Shown: piece after piece, positions 19,351 to 31,049 of the stretch
How the letters are laid out: every line of letters starts with the position of its first letter
How positions within the stretch are numbered: position 1 is the first letter of the stretch
NCBI RefSeq assembly: GCF_056712565.1
Contig: NZ_CM160072.1
Reading direction: 5' to 3' (one strand)
DNA length: 64,000 bases
Made by a program: the position numbers and the translations under genes
The notes under the pieces: generated by a model
The model's input: the letters and a program-made list of their open reading frames with translations, nothing else
What the model was told of the DNA's origin: nothing
Database searches by the model: none

Positions 19351-19398
19351 TTTGCCTTCCAGATATGCGTAAAGCCCGGAAGGTCCGGGCTGGGGATT

Positions 19399-19465
<67 letters not shown>

Positions 19466-21994: not shown

Positions 21995-23650
21995 ATGTTA
22001 AAACGTATCAAAATTGTGACCAGCCTACTGCTGGTTTTGGCCGTTTTTGGCCTTTTACAACTGACTTCAGGCGGTCTGTTCTTTAATGCCTTAAAGAACG
22101 ACAAAGAAAATTTCACTGTTTTACAAACCATTCGCCAGCAGCAATCCACGCTGAATGGCAGCTGGGTCGCTTTGTTGCAGACGCGTAACACCCTCAACCG
22201 CGCGGGTATCCGCTACATGATGGATCAGAACAATATTGGTAGCGGTTCAACCGTTGCTGAGCTGATGCAGAGTGCCAGTATTTCGCTGAAACAGGCGGAA
22301 AAAAACTGGGCGGATTACGAAGCGTTGCCGCGTGACCCGCGTCAGAGCACCGCCGCAGCGGCAGAGATCAAACGTAATTACGATATTTATCACAATGCGC
22401 TGGCGGAGCTGATACAACTGTTAGGTGCAGGCAAAATCAACGAGTTCTTTGATCAGCCGACCCAGGGATATCAGGACGGTTTCGAGAAGCAGTATGTGGC
22501 TTACATGGAGCAAAACGATCGGCTCTATGATATCGCCGTCAGCGATAACAATGCCTCCTACAGCCAGGCGATGTGGATTCTGGTAGGCGTGATGATCGTC
22601 GTACTGGCGGTCATCCTCGCCGTCTGGTTCGGTATTAAAGCCTCGCTGGTAGCGCCAATGAATCGCCTGATTGACAGCATTCGTCATATTGCAGGCGGCG
22701 ATCTGGTGAAACCGATTGAGGTGGATGGCTCTAATGAGATGGGGCAACTGGCAGAGAGTTTGCGCCATATGCAGGGAGAGCTGATGCGTACCGTCGGTGA
22801 TGTGCGCAACGGGGCCAATGCCATCTATAGCGGTGCCAGCGAAATCGCCACCGGCAATAACGATCTCTCTTCGCGCACCGAGCAACAGGCCGCTTCGCTG
22901 GAAGAGACGGCAGCCAGCATGGAGCAACTGACCGCAACGGTGAAACAGAATGCCGAAAATGCGCGCCAGGCCAGCCATCTGGCGTTAAGTGCTTCCGAAA
23001 CGGCGCAACGCGGCGGCAAAGTGGTGGATAACGTGGTGCAGACCATGCGCGATATCTCCACCAGTTCGCAGAAAATCGCCGATATTATCAGCGTAATTGA
23101 CGGCATTGCCTTCCAGACCAATATTCTGGCTTTGAACGCGGCGGTTGAGGCTGCGCGTGCGGGTGAGCAAGGACGCGGTTTTGCGGTGGTCGCGGGAGAA
23201 GTGCGTAATCTGGCCCAGCGTAGCGCTCAGGCTGCTCGTGAAATTAAAAGCCTGATTGAAGACTCGGTGGGGAAAGTGGATGTTGGCTCTACGCTGGTCG
23301 AAAGCGCCGGGGAAACAATGGCGGAGATTGTCAGTGCCGTGACCCGCGTGACGGACATTATGGGCGAAATTGCTTCTGCTTCTGATGAGCAGAGCCGTGG
23401 TATCGATCAGGTTGGCTTAGCGGTTGCTGAGATGGACCGGGTAACTCAACAGAACGCCGCGCTGGTGGAAGAATCTGCCGCCGCCGCCGCCGCGCTGGAA
23501 GAACAGGCCAGTCGCCTGACCGAAGCAGTGGCAGTGTTCCGGATTCAGCAACAGCAGCGTGAAGCATCGGCTGTGGTAAAAACCGTGACGCCAGCTACGC
23601 CGCGCAAAATGGCCGTGGCAGATAGCGAGGAGAACTGGGAAACGTTTTAA
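21995..23650 (+). CDS. tsr: Methyl-accepting chemotaxis protein I, serine chemoreceptor
   Basis: 551-aa ORF; two TM segments, periplasmic sensor, HAMP, methylation and highly conserved signalling domains, C-terminal NWETF pentapeptide. Confidence 0.95.
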
Positions 23651-23660
23651 CGTAATGATG

Positions 23661-23693
23661 CCGGATGAGTATTTCATCCGGCGTTTTTATTAT
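23661..23693 (+). terminator. Rho-independent terminator downstream of tsr
   Basis: Hairpin CCGGATGA / TCATCCGG followed by a T-rich tract (CGTTTTTATTATT). Confidence 0.7.
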
Positions 23694-24964
23694 TAAACCA
23701 GGAACAGTGAAATCGCCGGGATATATGTCACCAGCATTAGCATTAACAGTAGAGCCGCCAGTAGGGGCAGGGATTGTTTAAAGAAATTTCCCACCGAAAC
23801 TTGCGTGATATTACATACCAGCAGCATCACGGTACCTACCGGTGGCGTGAATGCGCCAATCGACAGGTTGAAGATCATGATGATGCCAAAATGCACCGGA
23901 TCGATGCCAAAGTGTTCGACCACCGGTTTTAATAGTGGTACCAGGATCAGCAAAATGGCGTTTCCTTCCAGAAACATCCCCAGCGTCAGCAGCAATATGT
24001 TGATAATCAACAGGAACATGTATTTGTTTTCGGTCAGCGAAGTCACAAAATTCGCCACTGCGACACCAGCATGTTCCATTGAGAAAATCCATCCCAATGC
24101 GGCGCTGGCCATGATTACCAGCATCACCGATGCGGTTGCGCGTGCCGTTTCGCCCAATGCTTTGACGACATGAGAAATCCGCATTTCACGATAGATAAAA
24201 AAGCCAATCGCCAGCACGATTAGCACCGCTACTGCACCTGCTTCTGTTGGGGTGAAAATGTTAGCGCGAATACCACCCACCACAGCAAAAATGAGGAACA
24301 GCGCAGGCCAGGCCTGTCCCAGCGAGAACACCACCTCTTTGCCCGTAGGCCAGCTTTCACGCGAGGGTTTAGCGTTAGTTTTGCGGGCGACAAGGTAGAC
24401 GGTAAACATCAGTACGACTGCGCATAGCAAACCAGGTACCAGTCCGGCGATAAACATTTTTCCGATAGAGACATCGGCAACCAGACCGTAAATAATCAGG
24501 GCTATTCCAGGCGGTATGATCGGGGTGACTAACGAGCCACCAGCGGTAATGGCGGCGGCAAACGCGCGATTGTAGCCTTTACGTTCCATCTCCGGCACCA
24601 TCATGCGCGACAGCATCGCCGCGTCAGCAAGGTTAGAGGCGCTGACGCCGCCCATCATGGTGCTGACGAGAATGTTTGCCACGCCCAGTCCGCCGCGCAT
24701 TTTCCCCACCAGAACGTTGGCAATGTGCAGGATGCGTTCGGCAATGCCGGTGTAGCTCATTAGTGTGCCGAGCAAGATAAAAAACGGAATTGCCAGCAAT
24801 GATGGGCTTTGCGTTGGCGCGATTAGTCTTTGCACGGCAATTTCAATCGGTACGCTGGAGAAGAATAAAAAGTAAGCGATGATGCCAATAAACATCGCCA
24901 GATAGACCCGAATGTTGAGAAACAAACAGACGATCATTAGCGGAATAATCAATAACCAACTCAT
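23693..24964 (-). CDS. TRAP transporter large permease (DctM family)
   Basis: 423-aa polytopic ORF with DctM-like sequence; 4-nt overlap with the upstream small permease gene; not present at this position in K-12. Confidence 0.85.
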   Translation of the reverse strand: MSWLLIIPLMIVCLFLNIRVYLAMFIGIIAYFLFFSSVPIEIAVQRLIAPTQSPSLLAIPFFILLGTLMSYTGIAERILHIANVLVGKMRGGLGVANILVSTMMGGVSASNLADAAMLSRMMVPEMERKGYNRAFAAAITAGGSLVTPIIPPGIALIIYGLVADVSIGKMFIAGLVPGLLCAVVLMFTVYLVARKTNAKPSRESWPTGKEVVFSLGQAWPALFLIFAVVGGIRANIFTPTEAGAVAVLIVLAIGFFIYREMRISHVVKALGETARATASVMLVIMASAALGWIFSMEHAGVAVANFVTSLTENKYMFLLIINILLLTLGMFLEGNAILLILVPLLKPVVEHFGIDPVHFGIIMIFNLSIGAFTPPVGTVMLLVCNITQVSVGNFFKQSLPLLAALLLMLMLVTYIPAISLFLV

Positions 24965-25434
24965 TGCATTTTGTCTCCGCTATCGGATTGTTTTGTATCG
25001 TTTATTAACCAGTAGAGGGTATAAATAGCCGTTGCCAGTGCGCCGACAGGGACCGCCAGATCGATCCAGAACCAGGAAACTTTCAGAATTTGTGTCACTT
25101 TAAACTGCGCCATTTCGGCTAGTCGGTAGCCCAGCCAGGCCATATAAAGCAGCAGTGCGATGGAGAGAAGGGCGACCAGTACTGCAATAACACGCCTGAG
25201 TTTGCCTGGAAGCATCTCCATCAGGAAGGGAATGGTCAGGTGCGCCCTGTCACGTTCCGCCACCACTCCACCTAACATCACCACCCAAATCATCAGCATT
25301 CCCGACATTTCTTCTGTCCATTGAAGCGGTTGGCCGATGAAATAACGCATAAATACCGCTCCAATTGTCACCACAACCAGAACGAATAGCGCAAAGGCAG
25401 CACTAAATTCTGCCACTTTGCCAAAAAGACGCAT
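24961..25434 (-). CDS. TRAP transporter small permease (DctQ family)
   Basis: 157-aa ORF with four predicted TM helices, located between the SBP and large-permease genes. Confidence 0.8.
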   Translation of the reverse strand: MRLFGKVAEFSAAFALFVLVVVTIGAVFMRYFIGQPLQWTEEMSGMLMIWVVMLGGVVAERDRAHLTIPFLMEMLPGKLRRVIAVLVALLSIALLLYMAWLGYRLAEMAQFKVTQILKVSWFWIDLAVPVGALATAIYTLYWLINDTKQSDSGDKMQ

Positions 25435-25497
25435 GAAACCTCCTGTTAGTGCGTGTCCTGCCTAAGAGAGATGAGGCAGGACGCTGAGCATTAATGC

Positions 25498-26469
25498 TTA
25501 TTGCAGTTGCTGTTGAATGGTTTCGTACAGACCTGGTGTCCATTCCGGGAATTGAGAGTAAACTTCGCGTGCTTTCTTCTGGAATGGTCCAGTATCGGGA
25601 TAGATCACTTCGACGCCGGCTGCCTGCATGGTTTTCAACATTTCGGCATCACGCTCAAGAGTGAGTTTCTGGCTATAGACACCCGCTTCATAGCCGGTCT
25701 GGTGGATCATCTCCAGTTGTTCTGGTGAAAGGGTGCTAAAGAAGGCTTCACCACCTATCCACACTGAGGTATTTGTCAGGTAGTTAACCATTGTCAGATA
25801 TCTTGCCTGCTCATACAGTTTTTGCCCTTGCAGCACTGAAATTGGGTTTTCTACGCCGTCAATAACGCCCTGGGTTAATGCGGGATAAACTTCGCCTAAT
25901 GGCATGGGAGTTGGTGTTGCCCCCATCGCCTGAATGGCTTTTATTTGCATGACGTTATTAGGAACGCGAATTTTTAAACCTGCGAGATCGTCAACGGTGC
26001 GAATGGGTTTTTTCGAAATAATCTGTCGAGTGCCATAGAGATAATTATTCATTACCACATGAATTCCCTTTTTCTTCAGACTTTCATTTTTTTGTTTAAA
26101 CCAGTCGCTTTCATATATTTTGAACAGTTTTTGCGGATCGTCAGTCAGATACGGTCCAAACAAAATCCCCAAATCGGGTTCATAATCGGCAAGAAAAGCC
26201 ACATCACTCAAGGTTATGACATTCATGCCCATCATGGCTTGCTCGGTGACATCCTGTTTTGATCCCAATTGGGAGCTGGGATAGAGCGCAAGTGTTATTT
26301 CGCCATTACTTTTTTTATTTAATAGGTCTGCCCAGTAACGCATGACCACATCCAGGGGTTCTCCAGGGTTATTTTCATAGGCAACTTTTATTGAAATAGG
26401 TTTTGCCTGGATTATTGACGGTAAAAAAAGGGTACTGACAGTAATTAGCATCGCTATTATTTTGCTCAT
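25498..26469 (-). CDS. TRAP transporter periplasmic solute-binding protein (DctP family)
   Basis: 323-aa ORF with N-terminal signal peptide (MSKIIAMLITVSTLFLPSIIQA); first gene of a dctPQM-type operon. Confidence 0.85.
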   Translation of the reverse strand: MSKIIAMLITVSTLFLPSIIQAKPISIKVAYENNPGEPLDVVMRYWADLLNKKSNGEITLALYPSSQLGSKQDVTEQAMMGMNVITLSDVAFLADYEPDLGILFGPYLTDDPQKLFKIYESDWFKQKNESLKKKGIHVVMNNYLYGTRQIISKKPIRTVDDLAGLKIRVPNNVMQIKAIQAMGATPTPMPLGEVYPALTQGVIDGVENPISVLQGQKLYEQARYLTMVNYLTNTSVWIGGEAFFSTLSPEQLEMIHQTGYEAGVYSQKLTLERDAEMLKTMQAAGVEVIYPDTGPFQKKAREVYSQFPEWTPGLYETIQQQLQ

Positions 26470-27138
26470 CTTTACTTACTCCATGCTAAGGAAATAAAAC
26501 TCCAACATTGTTGTCGGGAGTGAAACCTTATGAAAAAGCAGTCATTACTGAAAAGTAGTCAGCGAATAGCAGAATGGCTGCAGATGTATCATAAATTCGT
26601 GCACCGGGTAATACTTTGCTGCTTTTAATCGGTTTTTAATGCATTTTTTGATTGTATATCTTAAAGTTATGTAATGCATGACGTTACAAGGAACACCCTC
26701 TGATGAGTTTAGTTACCGCTGATAAGATCTCTTATTCTGTTGATGATTTATTAAAAATAAAATCATTAATTTGGCTGCGGCCATTTTAAATTGTCAATAC
26801 AGATAAAAACTAAGTGTTGACGCAGAATGGTGGTATCCATTAAATTTATTTAGTGCTGATTTAATACATTTGCTGAACGTATAATTCATGCTGATATTAA
26901 AAGAAAACCGTCATTCACTAAATAACTTGTTCGGCAAGGAAATCAGAGAGTAACGGATGATTCGTTACAACGGGGAAAGGCAGTAAATATTCACGTGGTG
27001 AATTTGTTATCAACTTGAAAACTCATTTTACTGGGTTCCTTCTGATCATGTGAGTGAACGCAGTGATTAATGATTAACGTTAAGTGCTAACCAGAGCGCT
27101 TTTTATGAAGTTAAATTAATAATATCCATTATTTATGA

Positions 27139-28812
27139 ATGAGGAAGCCTGTTTATTATATGGAAATACTTTTAACAATTTTAATTCTTACGTTGGTAGT
27201 ATCATTAACCAGCGTGCTTACACGTCTGTCTCCTGTCCAGATACCACTTCCTTTAATCCAGATTGCCGCTGGCGCAGTACTGGCCCAGCCTATATTTGGT
27301 CTGCATGTGGAATTCAATCCTGAACTTTTTCTCTTATTGTTTATACCACCCCTGTTGTTTGCTGAAAGTTCAAAAATACAACCTAAAGAATTGATCAAGC
27401 ACAGCCGGGAAATTATCAGCCTGGCACTTGTGTTGGTACTAATCACTATTTTTTGTGTCGGCTATGTGATTCATTTACTCTTACCGAATGTGCCGCTCAT
27501 CGCTGCTTTCGCATTAGCCGCCGTGTTGTCGCCTACCGATGCCGTGGCGTTGCTGGGGATTGTCGGGAAAGGGCGTATCAGCAAAAACATCCAGGAAGTG
27601 CTCGAAGGCGAAGCGTTGATGAATGATGCTTCCGGCCTGGTGGCGTTGAAATTTGCTGTTGCAGTGACGATGGGAACGATGGAATTCAGCGTTCATGGCG
27701 CAACCATTGCGTTTTTTGTCGTTGCGTTGGGCGGTATTGCCGTGGGGATCGCTGTTACCTGGTTATATGGTAAAGGGCTGCTGTTGATCAGCCGATATGC
27801 TCACGATGAACCTTCCATTCAGATTGTATTGATGCTTCTGTTGCCGTTTATTGTTTATCTGGTTGCGGAACATTTTGGCTTATCTGGCATTCTTGCCGCT
27901 GTCGCCGCGGGGTTAACAACCAGTCGCATTGGTGTAGTCCACCACGCGCCTATTCGCCTGAGAATTAAAGCTAAAAGTAGCTGGTCGATGCTTGAATATG
28001 TCTTTAACGGCATGGTGTTTCTGATTTTAGGCTTACAACTGCCGGGCATTATTTCGGAATCACTGATCCGTGCAGAAAACGATCCACTGGTGGACACCGG
28101 ATCGCTGCTCCTTGATGTCATTTGGATCTACCTGGCGTTAATGGTTGTGCGCCTGGGCTGGCTTTGGCTGATGCGTCTGTATAGCCGTAAACGACCCGGC
28201 AAACATCCGATGCTGTTTGCTGGATATAAAACGCGTCATATGCTGCTGGCGACCTTTGCGGGGGTGCGCGGAGCTATCACGCTTGCGGGGGTGCTTTCTA
28301 TCCCGTTATTGCTGCCGGATGGCACACCTTTTCCCGGGCGTTACTTGCTGGTATTTCTCGCCACAGGTGTGATCCTCTTTTCGCTGGTTTGCGGCATTAT
28401 TATTCTGCCGTTATTACTGGGGAAAAATGTGGGGATTTTCAGCGATAACCGACAAAAAGAAGAGGAAGCTGCCGATCTGTTTATGGCTAAAATGGCCATA
28501 CTGAGTGTGCAAAAGACCGAGCAACGTTTGCTGCGCGCCAGAACAGAAAACCTCGATAACGAGTTGATTATGGAAACGGGGGCCAGAGTTATCGGTTATA
28601 TGCGACATAGTGAAGAGGATATGTCGCCTAATGATAATTCCCTGCATATGCAGCGTGCGAAGCTGGAAAGAACATTTAATCTGGCGGCGTTAAATGCCAA
28701 ACGCGCGGCTATTTACCAGATGCGCGCAAGGCAAGAAGTCAGTGATGAAACACTGGCAAAAATAGTCAGTGAATTAGATGTGCTGGAAACGTTAATCATG
28801 GATAGCCGATAA
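27139..28812 (+). CDS. CPA1-family Na+/H+ exchanger (NhaP/NHE type)
   Basis: 557-aa ORF; membrane domain with LSPTDAVA and EGEALMNDA motifs, plus a C-terminal soluble domain. The start could be ATG 27139 or ATG 27160. Confidence 0.8.
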   Translation: MRKPVYYMEILLTILILTLVVSLTSVLTRLSPVQIPLPLIQIAAGAVLAQPIFGLHVEFNPELFLLLFIPPLLFAESSKIQPKELIKHSREIISLALVLVLITIFCVGYVIHLLLPNVPLIAAFALAAVLSPTDAVALLGIVGKGRISKNIQEVLEGEALMNDASGLVALKFAVAVTMGTMEFSVHGATIAFFVVALGGIAVGIAVTWLYGKGLLLISRYAHDEPSIQIVLMLLLPFIVYLVAEHFGLSGILAAVAAGLTTSRIGVVHHAPIRLRIKAKSSWSMLEYVFNGMVFLILGLQLPGIISESLIRAENDPLVDTGSLLLDVIWIYLALMVVRLGWLWLMRLYSRKRPGKHPMLFAGYKTRHMLLATFAGVRGAITLAGVLSIPLLLPDGTPFPGRYLLVFLATGVILFSLVCGIIILPLLLGKNVGIFSDNRQKEEEAADLFMAKMAILSVQKTEQRLLRARTENLDNELIMETGARVIGYMRHSEEDMSPNDNSLHMQRAKLERTFNLAALNAKRAAIYQMRARQEVSDETLAKIVSELDVLETLIMDSR

Positions 28813-28982
28813 TTTTATCGCTGCCAGTAATAGGGAATTAAATGATGGCTGAGAGTAATACTTCCAGCATCGTTTATTCCCTATGTATTTCCTTATGGGC
28901 AGAACAATCGCCTGGATTAATACTGCATTAATACAACATAGTGATATAAACCAAGAATCAATGTTTTTAATCTGTACTTAAT

Positions 28983-29888
28983 TTATCGGTGATGTTGCCT
29001 GATGGAACGAATCATTGATTGTTTGGCGGTATCCAGATGGTTTCGCAACGCCGTTATTGCATCTAAATCGCTACGGCAAATCAGGGCGCTGAGAATGGTC
29101 ATATGTTCATCAACAGCAATGATATTGCGCTGTTTGAGATCGCTTTCATCCCATTGATAGTGAAAATGAAAGATCACCGATATAATTTCAAGTGATTGAT
29201 TAAAAAAGATGTTGTCAGCAGCGGATAACAGCATGGCATGAAAATCACGGTCTAATTGAGAAAACATTCGAAAGTTGCTGCCAATGCTGTCGCGCAATGT
29301 CCTGTGACGTTCGAGCATGGTTTTCGCCTGCAACCAGCGAGGGTCATCATCGGGAAGGTTGAGAAAGTGTTGCAGGGAATGTGTTTCGAGCATTTCGCGT
29401 AGCTCAAACAGCTGCTCGGCGTAGGATTGATCGAACTGCTTCATGCTCCATTGGCCGCGCTTTTCGCTTTGAATAAGATTATAACGACCGAATTTCAAAA
29501 GATATTCTCGTACCACTACCGGACTGACGCTTGCCGCTCGCGCCAGCTGAAGTTCGGAAAAGCTTTCTCCGGCGCGTAACTGGCGCAGGTTAATCATGGT
29601 GAAAAATGCCTGCTCGAAAAGACGGTTTTGCTCTTTCAGCGAGGCCGTGATGCAATCAAATCCATCGTTCTGTTCGGGTTTGCGGGCGATAACATAATTT
29701 TTCCCCACCAGGGTGAGCACGCCACATGCGCTTAAATGCTGGAGTATGTGGCGTACCGTAGTGCGACTGATGTTATACATTTCTGCCAGTCCGCTTTGTG
29801 AAGGCAGCGGAGAAGGAATATTGCCCCTCGCCATATCTTCAATCACCTGATTTATGACGCTATGACGTAAATTCTGCGAACGACTCAT
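28983..29888 (-). CDS. lgoR: GntR/FadR-family regulator of L-galactonate catabolism
   Basis: 301-aa ORF with N-terminal winged HTH; divergent from lgoD as in K-12 (yjjM). Confidence 0.88.
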   Translation of the reverse strand: MSRSQNLRHSVINQVIEDMARGNIPSPLPSQSGLAEMYNISRTTVRHILQHLSACGVLTLVGKNYVIARKPEQNDGFDCITASLKEQNRLFEQAFFTMINLRQLRAGESFSELQLARAASVSPVVVREYLLKFGRYNLIQSEKRGQWSMKQFDQSYAEQLFELREMLETHSLQHFLNLPDDDPRWLQAKTMLERHRTLRDSIGSNFRMFSQLDRDFHAMLLSAADNIFFNQSLEIISVIFHFHYQWDESDLKQRNIIAVDEHMTILSALICRSDLDAITALRNHLDTAKQSMIRSIRQHHR

Positions 29889-30026
29889 TCTTCCCTCCAG
29901 TCCGGCATTAAAAGCCGATTTAAAACATTTTTATGCGCGATCATCCGCATATTTTATGGGTAAATTCAGGCGCTCTTATAAATTCGACGATATCTGAAAG
30001 TCATAAAATAAAAGGAGCGGTGAATC

Positions 30027-31049
30027 ATGTCCACAATGAAAGTATTAATTTGTCAGGAAATAAAGAATTTAGTATGGGAAGTCCGGGAAAGACCGGTGCC
30101 AGGCGATAATGAAGCATTAATTAAAATTAAAACTGTCGGGATTTGCGGTACAGATATTCATGCCTGGGCGGGCAATCAGCCATTTTTTAGTTATCCACGC
30201 GTTTTAGGCCATGAAATATGTGGGGAGATTATTGAATCAGGAAAAAACATTCACAATTTTAATATCGGACAGCAAGTTGCGGTAATTCCGTATATTTCTT
30301 GTCAGCAATGCCCGGCGTGTAAAAGCGGTCGTACCAATTGCTGTGAAAAAATTTCAGTCATGGGCGTGCATCAGGATGGCGGTTTTAGTGAGTATTTGAG
30401 CGTGCCGGTGGCGAACATTTTGCCCGCAGACGGTATTGACCCGCAGGCGGCAGCATTGATTGAACCTTTCGCTATTAGCGCTCATGCGGTGCGTCGTGCA
30501 GCCATTGCACCCAGCGAGCAGGTGCTGGTGGTCGGGGCGGGGCCAATCGGTCTGGGCGCGGCGGCAATCGCTAAAGCCGATGGCGCGCAGGTGGTGGTGG
30601 CGGATACCAGTCCGGCGCGTCGTGAACATGTGGCAACGCGTCTGGAATTACCTGTTCTGGACCCGTCAGCCGAAGATTTTGACGCGCAGCTGCGGGCGCA
30701 GTTTGGTGGTTCGCTGGCGCAGAAAGTGATTGACGCGACAGGTAATCAACATGCGATGAATAACACCGTAAATCTGATTCGTCACGGCGGCACGGTGGTA
30801 TTTGTCGGCCTGTTTAAAGGTGAGTTGCAGTTCTCCGATCCGGAATTCCATAAAAAAGAAACGACGATGATGGGCAGCCGCAACGCCACGCCGGAAGATT
30901 TCGCTAAAGTCGGTCGATTGATGGCGGAAGGGAAAATCACTGCCGACATGATGTTAACCCATCGCTATCCGTTCGCCACGCTGGCAGAAACCTACGAGCG
31001 CGATGTGATTAACAATCGTGAGTTGATTAAGGGCGTAATTACTTTCTGA
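30027..31049 (+). CDS. lgoD: Zn-dependent L-galactonate 5-dehydrogenase
   Basis: 340-aa MDR-family ORF (GHE..G zinc motif, GxGxxG NAD site); yjjN position. Confidence 0.9.
   Translation: MSTMKVLICQEIKNLVWEVRERPVPGDNEALIKIKTVGICGTDIHAWAGNQPFFSYPRVLGHEICGEIIESGKNIHNFNIGQQVAVIPYISCQQCPACKSGRTNCCEKISVMGVHQDGGFSEYLSVPVANILPADGIDPQAAALIEPFAISAHAVRRAAIAPSEQVLVVGAGPIGLGAAAIAKADGAQVVVADTSPARREHVATRLELPVLDPSAEDFDAQLRAQFGGSLAQKVIDATGNQHAMNNTVNLIRHGGTVVFVGLFKGELQFSDPEFHKKETTMMGSRNATPEDFAKVGRLMAEGKITADMMLTHRYPFATLAETYERDVINNRELIKGVITF

Follow-up and report, generated by a model that had tools for sequence, protein, structure and literature searches.

TRAP transporter genes in place of lgoT, with an inserted CPA1 antiporter gene, in a variant of the Escherichia coli L-galactonate locus

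The window analysed here is a 64,000-nt stretch of contig NZ_CM160072.1 (NCBI RefSeq assembly GCF_056712565.1). It is 98% identical to E. coli K-12 up to the tsr stop codon at 23650. From 23651 to ~30380 the identity profile against K-12 shows either no counterpart or 56-91% identity, and beyond ~30380 the identity is 96-100%. This variant segment measures about 6.7 kb, compared with about 3.3 kb for its K-12 counterpart, which consists of lgoT, lgoR and the 5' third of lgoD. In both genomes the locus lies between tsr and opgB and includes an orthologous regulator and dehydrogenase (yjjM-yjjL/yjjN for lgoR-lgoT/lgoD in K-12). As a sequence-only reading of the window had proposed, lgoT alone lies between tsr and lgoR in K-12, and the comparison found neither the TRAP genes nor the antiporter gene at that position.

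Gene families were assigned by NCBIfam and Pfam profiles with their cut-offs. The profile matches identified the three minus-strand reading frames next to tsr as the TRAP genes named in the sequence-only reading, at the same coordinates: dctM (23693-24964, large permease, 423 aa; TIGR00786, 400 bits against a cut-off of 268), dctQ (24961-25434, small permease, 157 aa; PF04290, E 6.8e-31) and dctP (25498-26469, periplasmic solute-binding protein, 323 aa; TIGR00787, 179.5 bits against a cut-off of 175.05). DctP also matched NF037995 with 177.7 bits (cut-off 50). The genes are read in the order P-Q-M, with a 63-nt gap between dctP and dctQ and a 4-nt overlap (ATGA) of the dctQ stop with the dctM start. 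The exchange of lgoT for these genes is an ordinary case of one transporter type in place of another: the K-12 transporter is an H+-coupled MFS/ACS permease, while a three-component TRAP system is encoded here.

Residues 1-22 of DctP form a hydrophobic N-terminus of the signal-peptide kind. The protein is 70% identical to PDB 4OVT (E 6e-147), and 4ovt_A was also the best Foldseek match of its AF2 model (pLDDT 89; 70% identity, TM 0.94). TRAP binding-protein structures matched the model with TM values of 0.85-0.94, among them 4O8M (42% identity, TM 0.92). In fold and family DctP resembles both 4OVT, from Ochrobactrum anthropi (Oant_3902), and 4O8M, from Actinobacillus succinogenes. Both are sugar-acid TRAP binding proteins, reportedly from the Enzyme Function Initiative screen by Vetting and colleagues in 2015. 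4OVT was reportedly crystallised with L-fuconate and not with L-galactonate, and the reported ligand of 4O8M is L-galactonate. In SiaP, R147 is the conserved binding-protein arginine that pairs with the substrate carboxylate. R168, R148 and N208 of DctP, which are invariant or nearly so in an alignment of 30 relatives, would correspond to SiaP R147, R127 and N187, a pairing that rests on the alignment offset.

The membrane unit resembles that of the SiaPQM systems of H. influenzae, P. profundum and V. cholerae, with which it shares the P/Q/M architecture and full-length DctM alignments (E 1e-68 to 1e-79; 2.5e-79 for PpSiaM, 7QHA_B). The Na+ sites of PpSiaM are formed by S103/S106/G145/V148/P150 and G325/G366/T369/M372 (PMC9971032), and the aligned residues of DctM are G105/S108/T147/I150/P152 and G329/G370/T373/V376. 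The Na1/Na2 positions are conserved in DctM, together with both twin-proline (PP) motifs and the cavity glutamate (E333). Because backbone carbonyls supply most of the Na+ ligands and TRAP systems at large have these sites in common, their conservation is consistent with Na+ coupling but does not prove it. The genes for Q and M are separate, as in PpSiaQM, whereas HiSiaQM is fused. The binding proteins are only ~27% identical, and the substrate class differs.

At the other end of the segment lie the regulator and dehydrogenase genes, which the sequence-only reading had regarded as retained. Both are indeed present at the tsr-opgB locus as orthologs that align over their full length, with flanking genes as in K-12; the description is nevertheless only partly right, since the variant segment extends to ~30380 inside lgoD and makes lgoR a divergent and lgoD a mosaic allele. 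The lgoR-type gene (28983-29888, minus strand) encodes a GntR/FCD regulator of 301 aa with 87% amino acid and 79% nucleotide identity to K-12 LgoR and 88% amino acid identity to the Citrobacter ortholog; at the nucleotide level the K-12 and Citrobacter alleles are equally distant from it. Its effector domain (residues 121-300) is almost identical to that of K-12. The lgoD gene (30027-31049, plus strand), the ortholog of L-galactonate 5-dehydrogenase, encodes a protein with 93% identity to K-12 LgoD, and all differences except one fall within residues 1-125. Its nucleotide identity to K-12 is 82% over positions 1-350 and 97.5% thereafter, the first ~350 nt being part of the variant haplotype.

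A 21-nt motif with the consensus ATTAAAAnCnnATTwAAArCA occurs three times in the window, against 0.03 matches expected. Copy 1, ATTAAAAACCGATTAAAAGCA (26620-26640, minus strand), precedes the dctP start by 151 bp; copy 2, ATTAAGTACAGATTAAAAACA (28962-28982, minus strand), is of the K-12 type and directly 3' of the lgoR stop; copy 3, ATTAAAAGCCGATTTAAAACA (29907-29927, plus strand), is located in the divergent lgoR-lgoD promoter region, within a block that K-12, two Citrobacter sequences and the TRAP form of E. coli share unchanged. K-12 and Citrobacter each carry the motif at two equivalent sites, one at the lgoR-lgoD promoter and the other ahead of the transporter gene (lgoT or dctP). The motif is AT-rich, unlike typical GntR palindromes, and is a candidate LgoR site. 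Copy 1 belongs to a conserved control element (26586-26642, minus strand) that aligns with the regions upstream of Citrobacter dctP and K-12 lgoT; this block of ~55 bp is common to both although the genes downstream of it are unrelated. The transporter operon is preceded, then, by a cis element also found at lgoT and lgoD, and the shared motif putatively links it to the lgo regulon.

The locus of Citrobacter amalonaticus reads opgB-lgoD-lgoR-dctPQM-tsr-btsT. It has the tsr-opgB slot and the motifs in common with the E. coli variant, as well as an orthologous TRAP system (90% amino acid identity for DctP, 94% for DctM and 80% for DctQ). Unlike the E. coli variant, it contains no antiporter gene, and lgoR and dctPQM are collinear, as are lgoR and lgoT in K-12, with a lgoR-dctP spacer of 184 bp. 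In the E. coli variant the antiporter gene splits lgoR from the transporter operon, so the operon is not directly 3' of lgoR.

Relatives of this TRAP system were found at 65 loci, most of which carry an LgoD-like gene within 10 kb of dctP, directly adjacent in many cases; the antiporter gene was absent from all 65. In Brucella the ortholog operon encodes a GntR regulator alongside three enzymes: an LgoD-like Zn-dehydrogenase, a UxaA/GarD-family dehydratase and a UxaB-like tagaturonate reductase. Its content agrees with an L-galactonate locus type with a TRAP transporter reported in PMC5507952, where TRAP systems specific for L-galactonate/L-fuconate are also described. More generally, 4OVT-type orthologs of Brucella and Ochrobactrum are encoded with LgoD-like, UxaA-family and UxaB-like genes, whereas uxaA and uxaB lie outside the E. 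coli lgo locus, and the regulator of the enterobacterial system is of the LgoR type instead of the ExuR/UxuR-like GntR type of 4OVT/4O8M-type systems. The closest orthologs outside the syntenic loci have other neighbours: in Edaphovirga (83%) the tetronate-catabolism genes otnK/otnC follow at a distance of 310 bp, and in Affinibrenneria (81%) the ortholog adjoins a DASS/DcuSR module.

The divergent gene beyond dctP had been read as a frame of 557 aa at 27139-28812 on the plus strand. The reading frame and the CPA1 family stand (TIGR00831, 525.9 bits against a cut-off of 279.6), but the start is most likely the ATG at 27160, because the alignment with YjcE begins there and the RefSeq start is identical; the product then has 550 aa (27160-28812). 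It is a paralog of YjcE, the core CPA1 protein of E. coli, which it matches in length, architecture and the TD/ND/R motifs, with 58% identity end to end. It differs from yjcE in being a second copy, present in ~16% of genomes at another locus ~300 kb away (K-12 coordinates). No established physiological role is known for YjcE itself. Among solved structures, SOS1/NHX7-type exchangers are nearest in sequence; T125-D126, N154-D155 and R370 align with their equivalent residues, and PF00999 is annotated for all members of the antiporter cluster. An ND motif, as opposed to DD, marks electroneutral CPA1 exchangers. The protein is thus predicted to be a YjcE-type CPA1 Na+/H+ exchanger.

This gene occupies a segment of 2,321 bp (26641-28961) that has no counterpart in the Citrobacter and K-12 layouts. 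Its flanks are AT-rich, with a GC fraction of 0.34 in the 690-bp spacer, and it is framed by motif copies 1 and 2, 2,342 bp apart (repeat family D2); homology to K-12 restarts exactly at 28962, the right edge of the insertion. Because the syntenic C. amalonaticus locus has no antiporter, we regard the gene as a separate 2.3-kb insertion, and by this comparison of loci it is outside the ancestral TRAP module. Its clade is small, comprising Escherichia and four cluster representatives at 76-77% identity. Members beyond Escherichia come from Klebsiella sp. I138, Edaphovirga and the metagenome-derived contig L076. In Klebsiella sp. I138 the ortholog (77%) is divergent from a dctP-dctQ-dctM operon across an AT-rich spacer of ~700 bp, and a contig labelled Limnobaculum has the same flanks, but the TRAP system there shares just 26-28% identity with the E. 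coli one. On L076 the ortholog is two genes from a DASS Na+-anion symporter. The Edaphovirga gene adjoins Rep3/ParA/ParG genes ~100 kb from the TRAP ortholog, and this plasmid-like Rep/Par context suggests mobility.

The TRAP/antiporter form was found in 860 of 5,426 complete E. coli genomes (~16%, about one in six), lgoT being present in the others. The antiporter gene is carried by 859 genomes, without exception at the lgo locus, and is kept in 859 of ~864 TRAP-form genomes.

Uptake of a sugar acid by the TRAP system, as the sequence-only reading had suggested, is well supported by these comparisons. An L-galactonate-type aldonate is the predicted substrate, with good support from the position of Citrobacter dctPQM directly 3' of lgoR in the lgoT slot of K-12, from the shared motif and from the 4OVT-type orthologs beside LgoD-like, UxaB-like and UxaA-family genes. 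Growth of K-12 on L-galactonate depends on LgoT (bioRxiv 10.64898/2026.05.20.726482), and strains without lgoT but with intact lgoR and lgoD would therefore need another importer. DctP would capture the aldonate and pass it to the DctQM membrane unit, which probably imports it with Na+ through an elevator movement as described for SiaPQM. The substrate would then be oxidised by LgoD to D-tagaturonate, which would enter the UxaB/UxaA route. As the control element is kept upstream of dctP, including the direct-repeat motif that recurs at the lgoR-lgoD promoter, transcription of dctPQM most likely begins at the promoter element through which LgoR controls lgoT in K-12. The CPA1 gene would be a yjcE-paralog insertion in the short lgoR-dctP spacer, beside the motif. 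Taken as a whole, we consider it fairly probable that the segment represents an alternative haplotype of long standing at the E. coli L-galactonate (lgo) locus, with TRAP for LgoT, an L-galactonate-type substrate, control by LgoR and the antiporter as a separate insertion.

It is rather improbable that the TRAP system imports another acid (a C4-dicarboxylate, tetronates, L-fuconate or L-gulonate), the lgo enzymes being fed otherwise or shifted in specificity. The RefSeq product name of DctP, 'C4-dicarboxylate TRAP transporter substrate-binding protein', points that way, but the characterised close relatives nearly all bind sugar acids and not C4-dicarboxylates. The otnK/otnC neighbours of the Edaphovirga ortholog and the ligand presumed for 4OVT would agree with tetronates or L-fuconate, while the Brucella-type operon context fits the L-galactonate route. 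L-Gulonate is reportedly also oxidised by LgoD (Kuivanen and Richard 2014). LgoR as a whole and the substrate-proximal N-terminal third of LgoD are divergent, yet the LgoR effector domain has stayed close to that of K-12, and the site downstream of lgoR with its shared control element points to the lgo regulon.

For the antiporter, the sequence-only reading had proposed a TRAP partner that recycles the coupling ion. In such a scheme every substrate would bring in Na+, which the electroneutral exchanger encoded next door would expel for H+. Such a role, which would make Na+-coupled uptake workable where the main antiporter NhaA is inactive (acidic-neutral gut pH), appears unlikely on balance. 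The small clade, the divergent dctPQM of Klebsiella sp. I138 and the Limnobaculum-labelled contig, the symporter on L076, the near-constant retention in TRAP-form genomes, and the kept Na1/Na2 and TD/ND/R motifs speak for it. On the other hand, its absence from Citrobacter and the 65 related loci means that in other genomes the TRAP system functions without this gene, the Edaphovirga copy is remote from the TRAP genes, and independent TRAP adjacencies number only two. Furthermore, the antiporter leaders share no regulatory sequence, no Rfam element was found, other systems for Na+ extrusion exist in E. coli, and our literature search found no report of a CPA1 antiporter-TRAP pairing. More speculative still, and less probable, is a small YjcE-like clade serving as a portable 'sodium-return' partner of TRAP transporters, recruited at least twice in divergent orientation beside unrelated dctPQM operons, once in E. 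coli and once in a Klebsiella sp. I138-type lineage. Since the gene lies between two putative LgoR-type operator copies, L-galactonate would then induce uptake and Na+ extrusion together, and a proton-economy gut bacterium could run Na+-coupled high-affinity scavenging at a pH that leaves NhaA inactive. A neutral passenger, that is, a yjcE-type duplicate that landed in the lgoR-dctP spacer of a locus that may be decaying in some lineages, falls somewhat short of an even chance. It would agree with the separate insertion and its AT-rich flanks, with the Edaphovirga context, with the lgoD frameshift in APEC E19035 (at least one TRAP-form strain is so affected) and with yjcE::paralog chimeras, which show that the two copies recombine. 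Against a mere passenger, however, the open reading frame is intact and 96-100% conserved in hundreds of genomes, which form two allele groups, as well as in Escherichia sp. E4742; the catalytic motifs are kept, and in a second genus the gene again adjoins a TRAP operon.

All four ORFs that the sequence-only reading had placed between tsr and lgoR were found at precisely those coordinates, and were assigned by NCBIfam and Pfam profiles. On the minus strand these are dctM (23693-24964; TIGR00786, 400 bits against a cut-off of 268), dctQ (24961-25434; PF04290, E 7e-31) and dctP (25498-26469; TIGR00787, 179.5 bits, cut-off 175), and on the plus strand a CPA1 Na+/H+ antiporter (ORF 27139-28812; TIGR00831, 526 bits, cut-off 280). 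The antiporter had been given as 557 aa from 27139; the alignment with YjcE and the RefSeq start place its ATG at 27160, which gives 550 aa. E. coli strain 104 is 100% identical to the window across the locus.

Alignment to K-12 showed 98% identity as far as the tsr stop codon (23650), no or weak similarity from 23651 to ~30380, about 350 nt into lgoD, and again 96-100% identity beyond this point. Thus, the variant haplotype extends from 23651 to ~30380. As claimed, the K-12 tsr-lgoR interval holds lgoT alone, and the TRAP and antiporter genes are not there. The genes lgoR and lgoD, described as retained, are indeed both present, but the lgoR allele has diverged from that of K-12 (87% aa and 79% nt identity) and lgoD is a mosaic, in which all amino-acid differences from K-12 except one fall within residues 1-125. 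The TRAP/antiporter arrangement was found in 860 of 5,426 complete E. coli genomes, the remainder carrying lgoT. Because the ORFs were confirmed, K-12 has only lgoT and so many genomes share the arrangement, the observation is real and far from chance. Outside the haplotype, the yjiX-btsT spacer (19351-19464) is ~68 bp longer than that of K-12 (117 bp vs 49 bp).

Upstream of dctP, a stretch of ~55 bp aligns with the regions upstream of Citrobacter dctP and of K-12 lgoT, despite the unrelated downstream genes. The core of this shared block is the direct-repeat motif ATTAAAAnCnnATTwAAArCA, and the same motif forms an invariant block of the lgoR-lgoD divergent promoter in every sequence compared. 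The pattern has three matches in the 64-kb window (0.03 expected), at 26620-26640 (151 bp upstream of dctP), at 28962-28982 (directly after the lgoR stop codon) and at 29907-29927 (lgoR-lgoD spacer), and it matches both equivalent sites in K-12 and likewise in Citrobacter. As no description of LgoR binding sites was found in the literature searched, we can only infer that the motif is a candidate LgoR operator. Whichever protein binds, the shared element ties dctPQM into one regulon with lgoD and lgoT. The copy at 28962-28982 is no longer followed by a transporter gene and faces the 3' end of the convergent antiporter gene, which therefore sits between two candidate-operator copies. A promoter and terminator scan of 26400-30100 gave match counts not above those of shuffled sequence, and an Rfam search, aimed at a riboswitch or sRNA in the 690-bp dctP-antiporter spacer, gave no match at E <= 1 anywhere in 23600-30100.

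Among solved structures, DctP is closest to 4OVT of Ochrobactrum anthropi (E 6e-147), and the AF2 model of DctP (pLDDT 89) superposes on it with a TM-score of 0.94 at 70% identity; 4O8M ranks second among solved relatives at 42% identity. We take 4OVT and 4O8M to be the L-fuconate and L-galactonate complexes of Vetting et al. 2015. In orthologs of the Brucella/Ochrobactrum group, the genes ahead of dctPQM encode an LgoD-like Zn-dehydrogenase, a UxaA/GarD-family dehydratase, a GntR regulator and a UxaB-like tagaturonate reductase; the enzymes are those of the route from L-galactonate via D-tagaturonate and D-altronate to KDG. PMC5507952 describes a locus of this type whose TRAP system is specific for L-galactonate/L-fuconate. 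Since a K-12 delta-lgoT strain fails to grow on L-galactonate (bioRxiv 10.64898/2026.05.20.726482), strains lacking lgoT with intact lgoR and lgoD need another importer. Two DctP orthologs stand in other contexts, which count against this substrate: that of Edaphovirga (83%) lies 310 bp upstream of otnK/otnC, and that of Affinibrenneria (81%) adjoins a DASS/DcuSR module. The RefSeq names of the locus genes are generic only, and 'C4-dicarboxylate' is a family label that gives no evidence on substrate. The best explanation of the TRAP system is an lgo-regulon importer substituting for LgoT, a non-orthologous displacement inside a known pathway by a sugar-acid TRAP transporter of a known kind. 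As far as could be found, the TRAP form of the lgo locus has only generic annotation and is apparently undescribed in the literature searched. In APEC E19035 (NZ_CP126926.1, L077:1460-2483), lgoD is annotated as frameshifted while the TRAP genes, antiporter and lgoR are intact; thus, the lgo pathway may be decaying in some lineages.

Sodium coupling was approached by transferring the Na+ sites of PpSiaQM (PMC9971032; those of HiSiaQM are published in PMC10942642) to DctM via alignment. At Na1, S103/S106/G145/V148/P150 of PpSiaQM correspond to G105/S108/T147/I150/P152 of the window DctM, and at Na2, G325/G366/T369/M372 correspond to G329/G370/T373/V376. DctM keeps both twin-proline motifs and the sole side-chain ligand, T373. 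Such conservation fits Na+ coupling but is no proof, since TRAP systems in general keep these positions.

Should the TRAP system serve these strains as their L-galactonate importer, roughly a sixth of the E. coli sequenced, among them B2 pathotypes such as LF82 and APEC O2:K1, would differ from K-12 in the mechanism by which this pectin- and plant-derived sugar acid is taken up. A binding-protein-dependent, probably Na+-coupled TRAP transporter could scavenge below the range of LgoT (KM ~37 uM). This bears on strain-specific metabolic models, on gut niche partitioning and on the interpretation of K-12-based transporter knock-outs.

The syntenic order in Citrobacter amalonaticus is opgB-lgoD-lgoR-dctP-dctQ-dctM-tsr-btsT, with lgoR and dctPQM collinear and 184 bp apart, the same layout as lgoR-lgoT in K-12; unlike the window, this locus is without an antiporter. 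A DctP scan with one genome per species yielded 65 loci, and in none of them did an antiporter homolog lie less than 10 kb from the TRAP genes. In the window, an antiporter-carrying 2,321 bp (26641-28961) splits the lgoR-dctP spacer and is flanked by two imperfect 21-nt motif copies 2,342 bp apart. The antiporter is thus an insertion separate from the TRAP operon. A transposon target-site duplication was not adopted as the origin of the paired 21-nt sequence: the length exceeds what typical insertion sequences produce, the copies differ at 4/21 positions, and the lgoR-side copy is K-12-like while the dctP-side copy is Citrobacter-like, i.e. they are of different parental types. A recent import from Citrobacter was also rejected. 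The TRAP genes are just 76-81% identical to those of Citrobacter at the nucleotide level, near the 80-81% of the flanking core genes tsr and opgB, and megablast with the Citrobacter layout found the antiporter-free form in no complete E. coli genome. As the TRAP genes diverge from Citrobacter about like core genes, and the E. coli lgoR alleles are only 79% identical to each other (either being equally far from Citrobacter lgoR), the TRAP haplotype is old, or else it came from a lineage as distant as another genus. Two haplotypes diverging like different genera make a clear case of a long-lived transporter polymorphism under one regulatory element. One allele group, to which the B2 strains LF82 and APEC O2:K1:H5 belong, counts 600 genomes that match the window at >=99% identity; the other comprises 264 genomes at ~98.4%, including large STEC-like genomes, and has one antiporter cluster named from O145:H28.

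The antiporter is a paralog of the core yjcE product (58% identity, full length) with intact TD, ND and Arg motifs, and its gene, present in 859 genomes, lies at the tsr-opgB lgo locus every time. Its clade is small, consisting of Escherichia and four cluster representatives at 76-77%, the next matches being at YjcE level (57-60%). In Klebsiella sp. I138 the antiporter ortholog is divergent from dctP-dctQ-dctM with a spacer of ~700 bp, a layout as in the window, although that TRAP system is just 26-28% identical to the window one. The island (CP180447.1, L070:5169-11650) reads GntR-dctPQM-antiporter and is flanked by acrD-like and aegA-like genes, at the site presumably occupied by narQ in K-12. 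The 353-aa DctP of this island most closely resembles 4YZZ/4YIC, SmoM (2HZK) and a keto-acid-binding protein (7UG8). The divergent layout recurs on a contig labelled Limnobaculum xujianqingii, which has the island genes and flanks at 87-97% aa identity and is probably of the same lineage. The Edaphovirga ortholog lies ~100 kb from the TRAP ortholog, and that on the unassigned contig L076 adjoins a ManD-like dehydratase gene, with a DASS symporter two genes off. A leader block is common to Klebsiella, the Limnobaculum-labelled contig and L076, and shares nothing with the E. coli leader. Adjacency to unrelated TRAP operons in two independent cases exceeds what we would expect by chance, but the sample is too small to carry the claim, and no report of such pairing was found in the literature. 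Recycling of Na+ by the antiporter for the TRAP system is a testable idea with modest comparative support, and the recurrent adjacency offers a cheap and testable approach to how enterobacteria sustain their Na+-coupled transporters.

Two further contexts, L074:10001-11653 (GCA_015160575.1) and L075:1133-2782 (ERZ827177), were rejected as independent since both are reciprocal chimeras of yjcE and the antiporter gene in public assemblies. L074 runs ghxP, yjcE 5' part (~800 nt at 100%) fused to the antiporter 3' part (94-100%), lgoR-lgoD-opgB; L075 runs dctP (100% to the window), the 690-bp spacer, antiporter 5' part fused to yjcE 3' part, LysR-lrgAB-actP-yjcH-acs. As the two genes are ~300 kb apart in K-12 coordinates, the chimeras reflect a large rearrangement or else an assembly artefact that recurs. 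In Edaphovirga cremea (L069:5862-11644), the antiporter ortholog (76%) is directly downstream of ParA, ParG and Rep3 replication-initiator genes on a 222-kb contig, which suggests an integrated plasmid or mobile context for the clade.

Other TRAP loci occur in Escherichia. The TRAP locus of the BEN2908 paper (GR 21) is not the window locus, as it lies at ygiQ-ftsP; in B2 ExPEC it carries a YjjN-like dehydrogenase gene (55% to YjjN) and a UxuB-like gene (PMC12928451). Hence, some E. coli lineages hold up to three sugar-acid-type TRAP systems besides YiaMNO of K-12. A second, paralogous operon (L006:4995-12800; DctP 72-73% aa, ~70% nt; also in E. albertii, L007, and E. whittamii, L009) adjoins gltA and fimbrial genes. 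Its neighbours encode a GntR regulator, an RraA-like aldolase, a Zn-dehydrogenase, an SDR and a split UxaA-like dehydratase, and it probably serves a different sugar-acid pathway. This paralog is present in 603 complete E. coli genomes from which the tsr-opgB TRAP form is absent.
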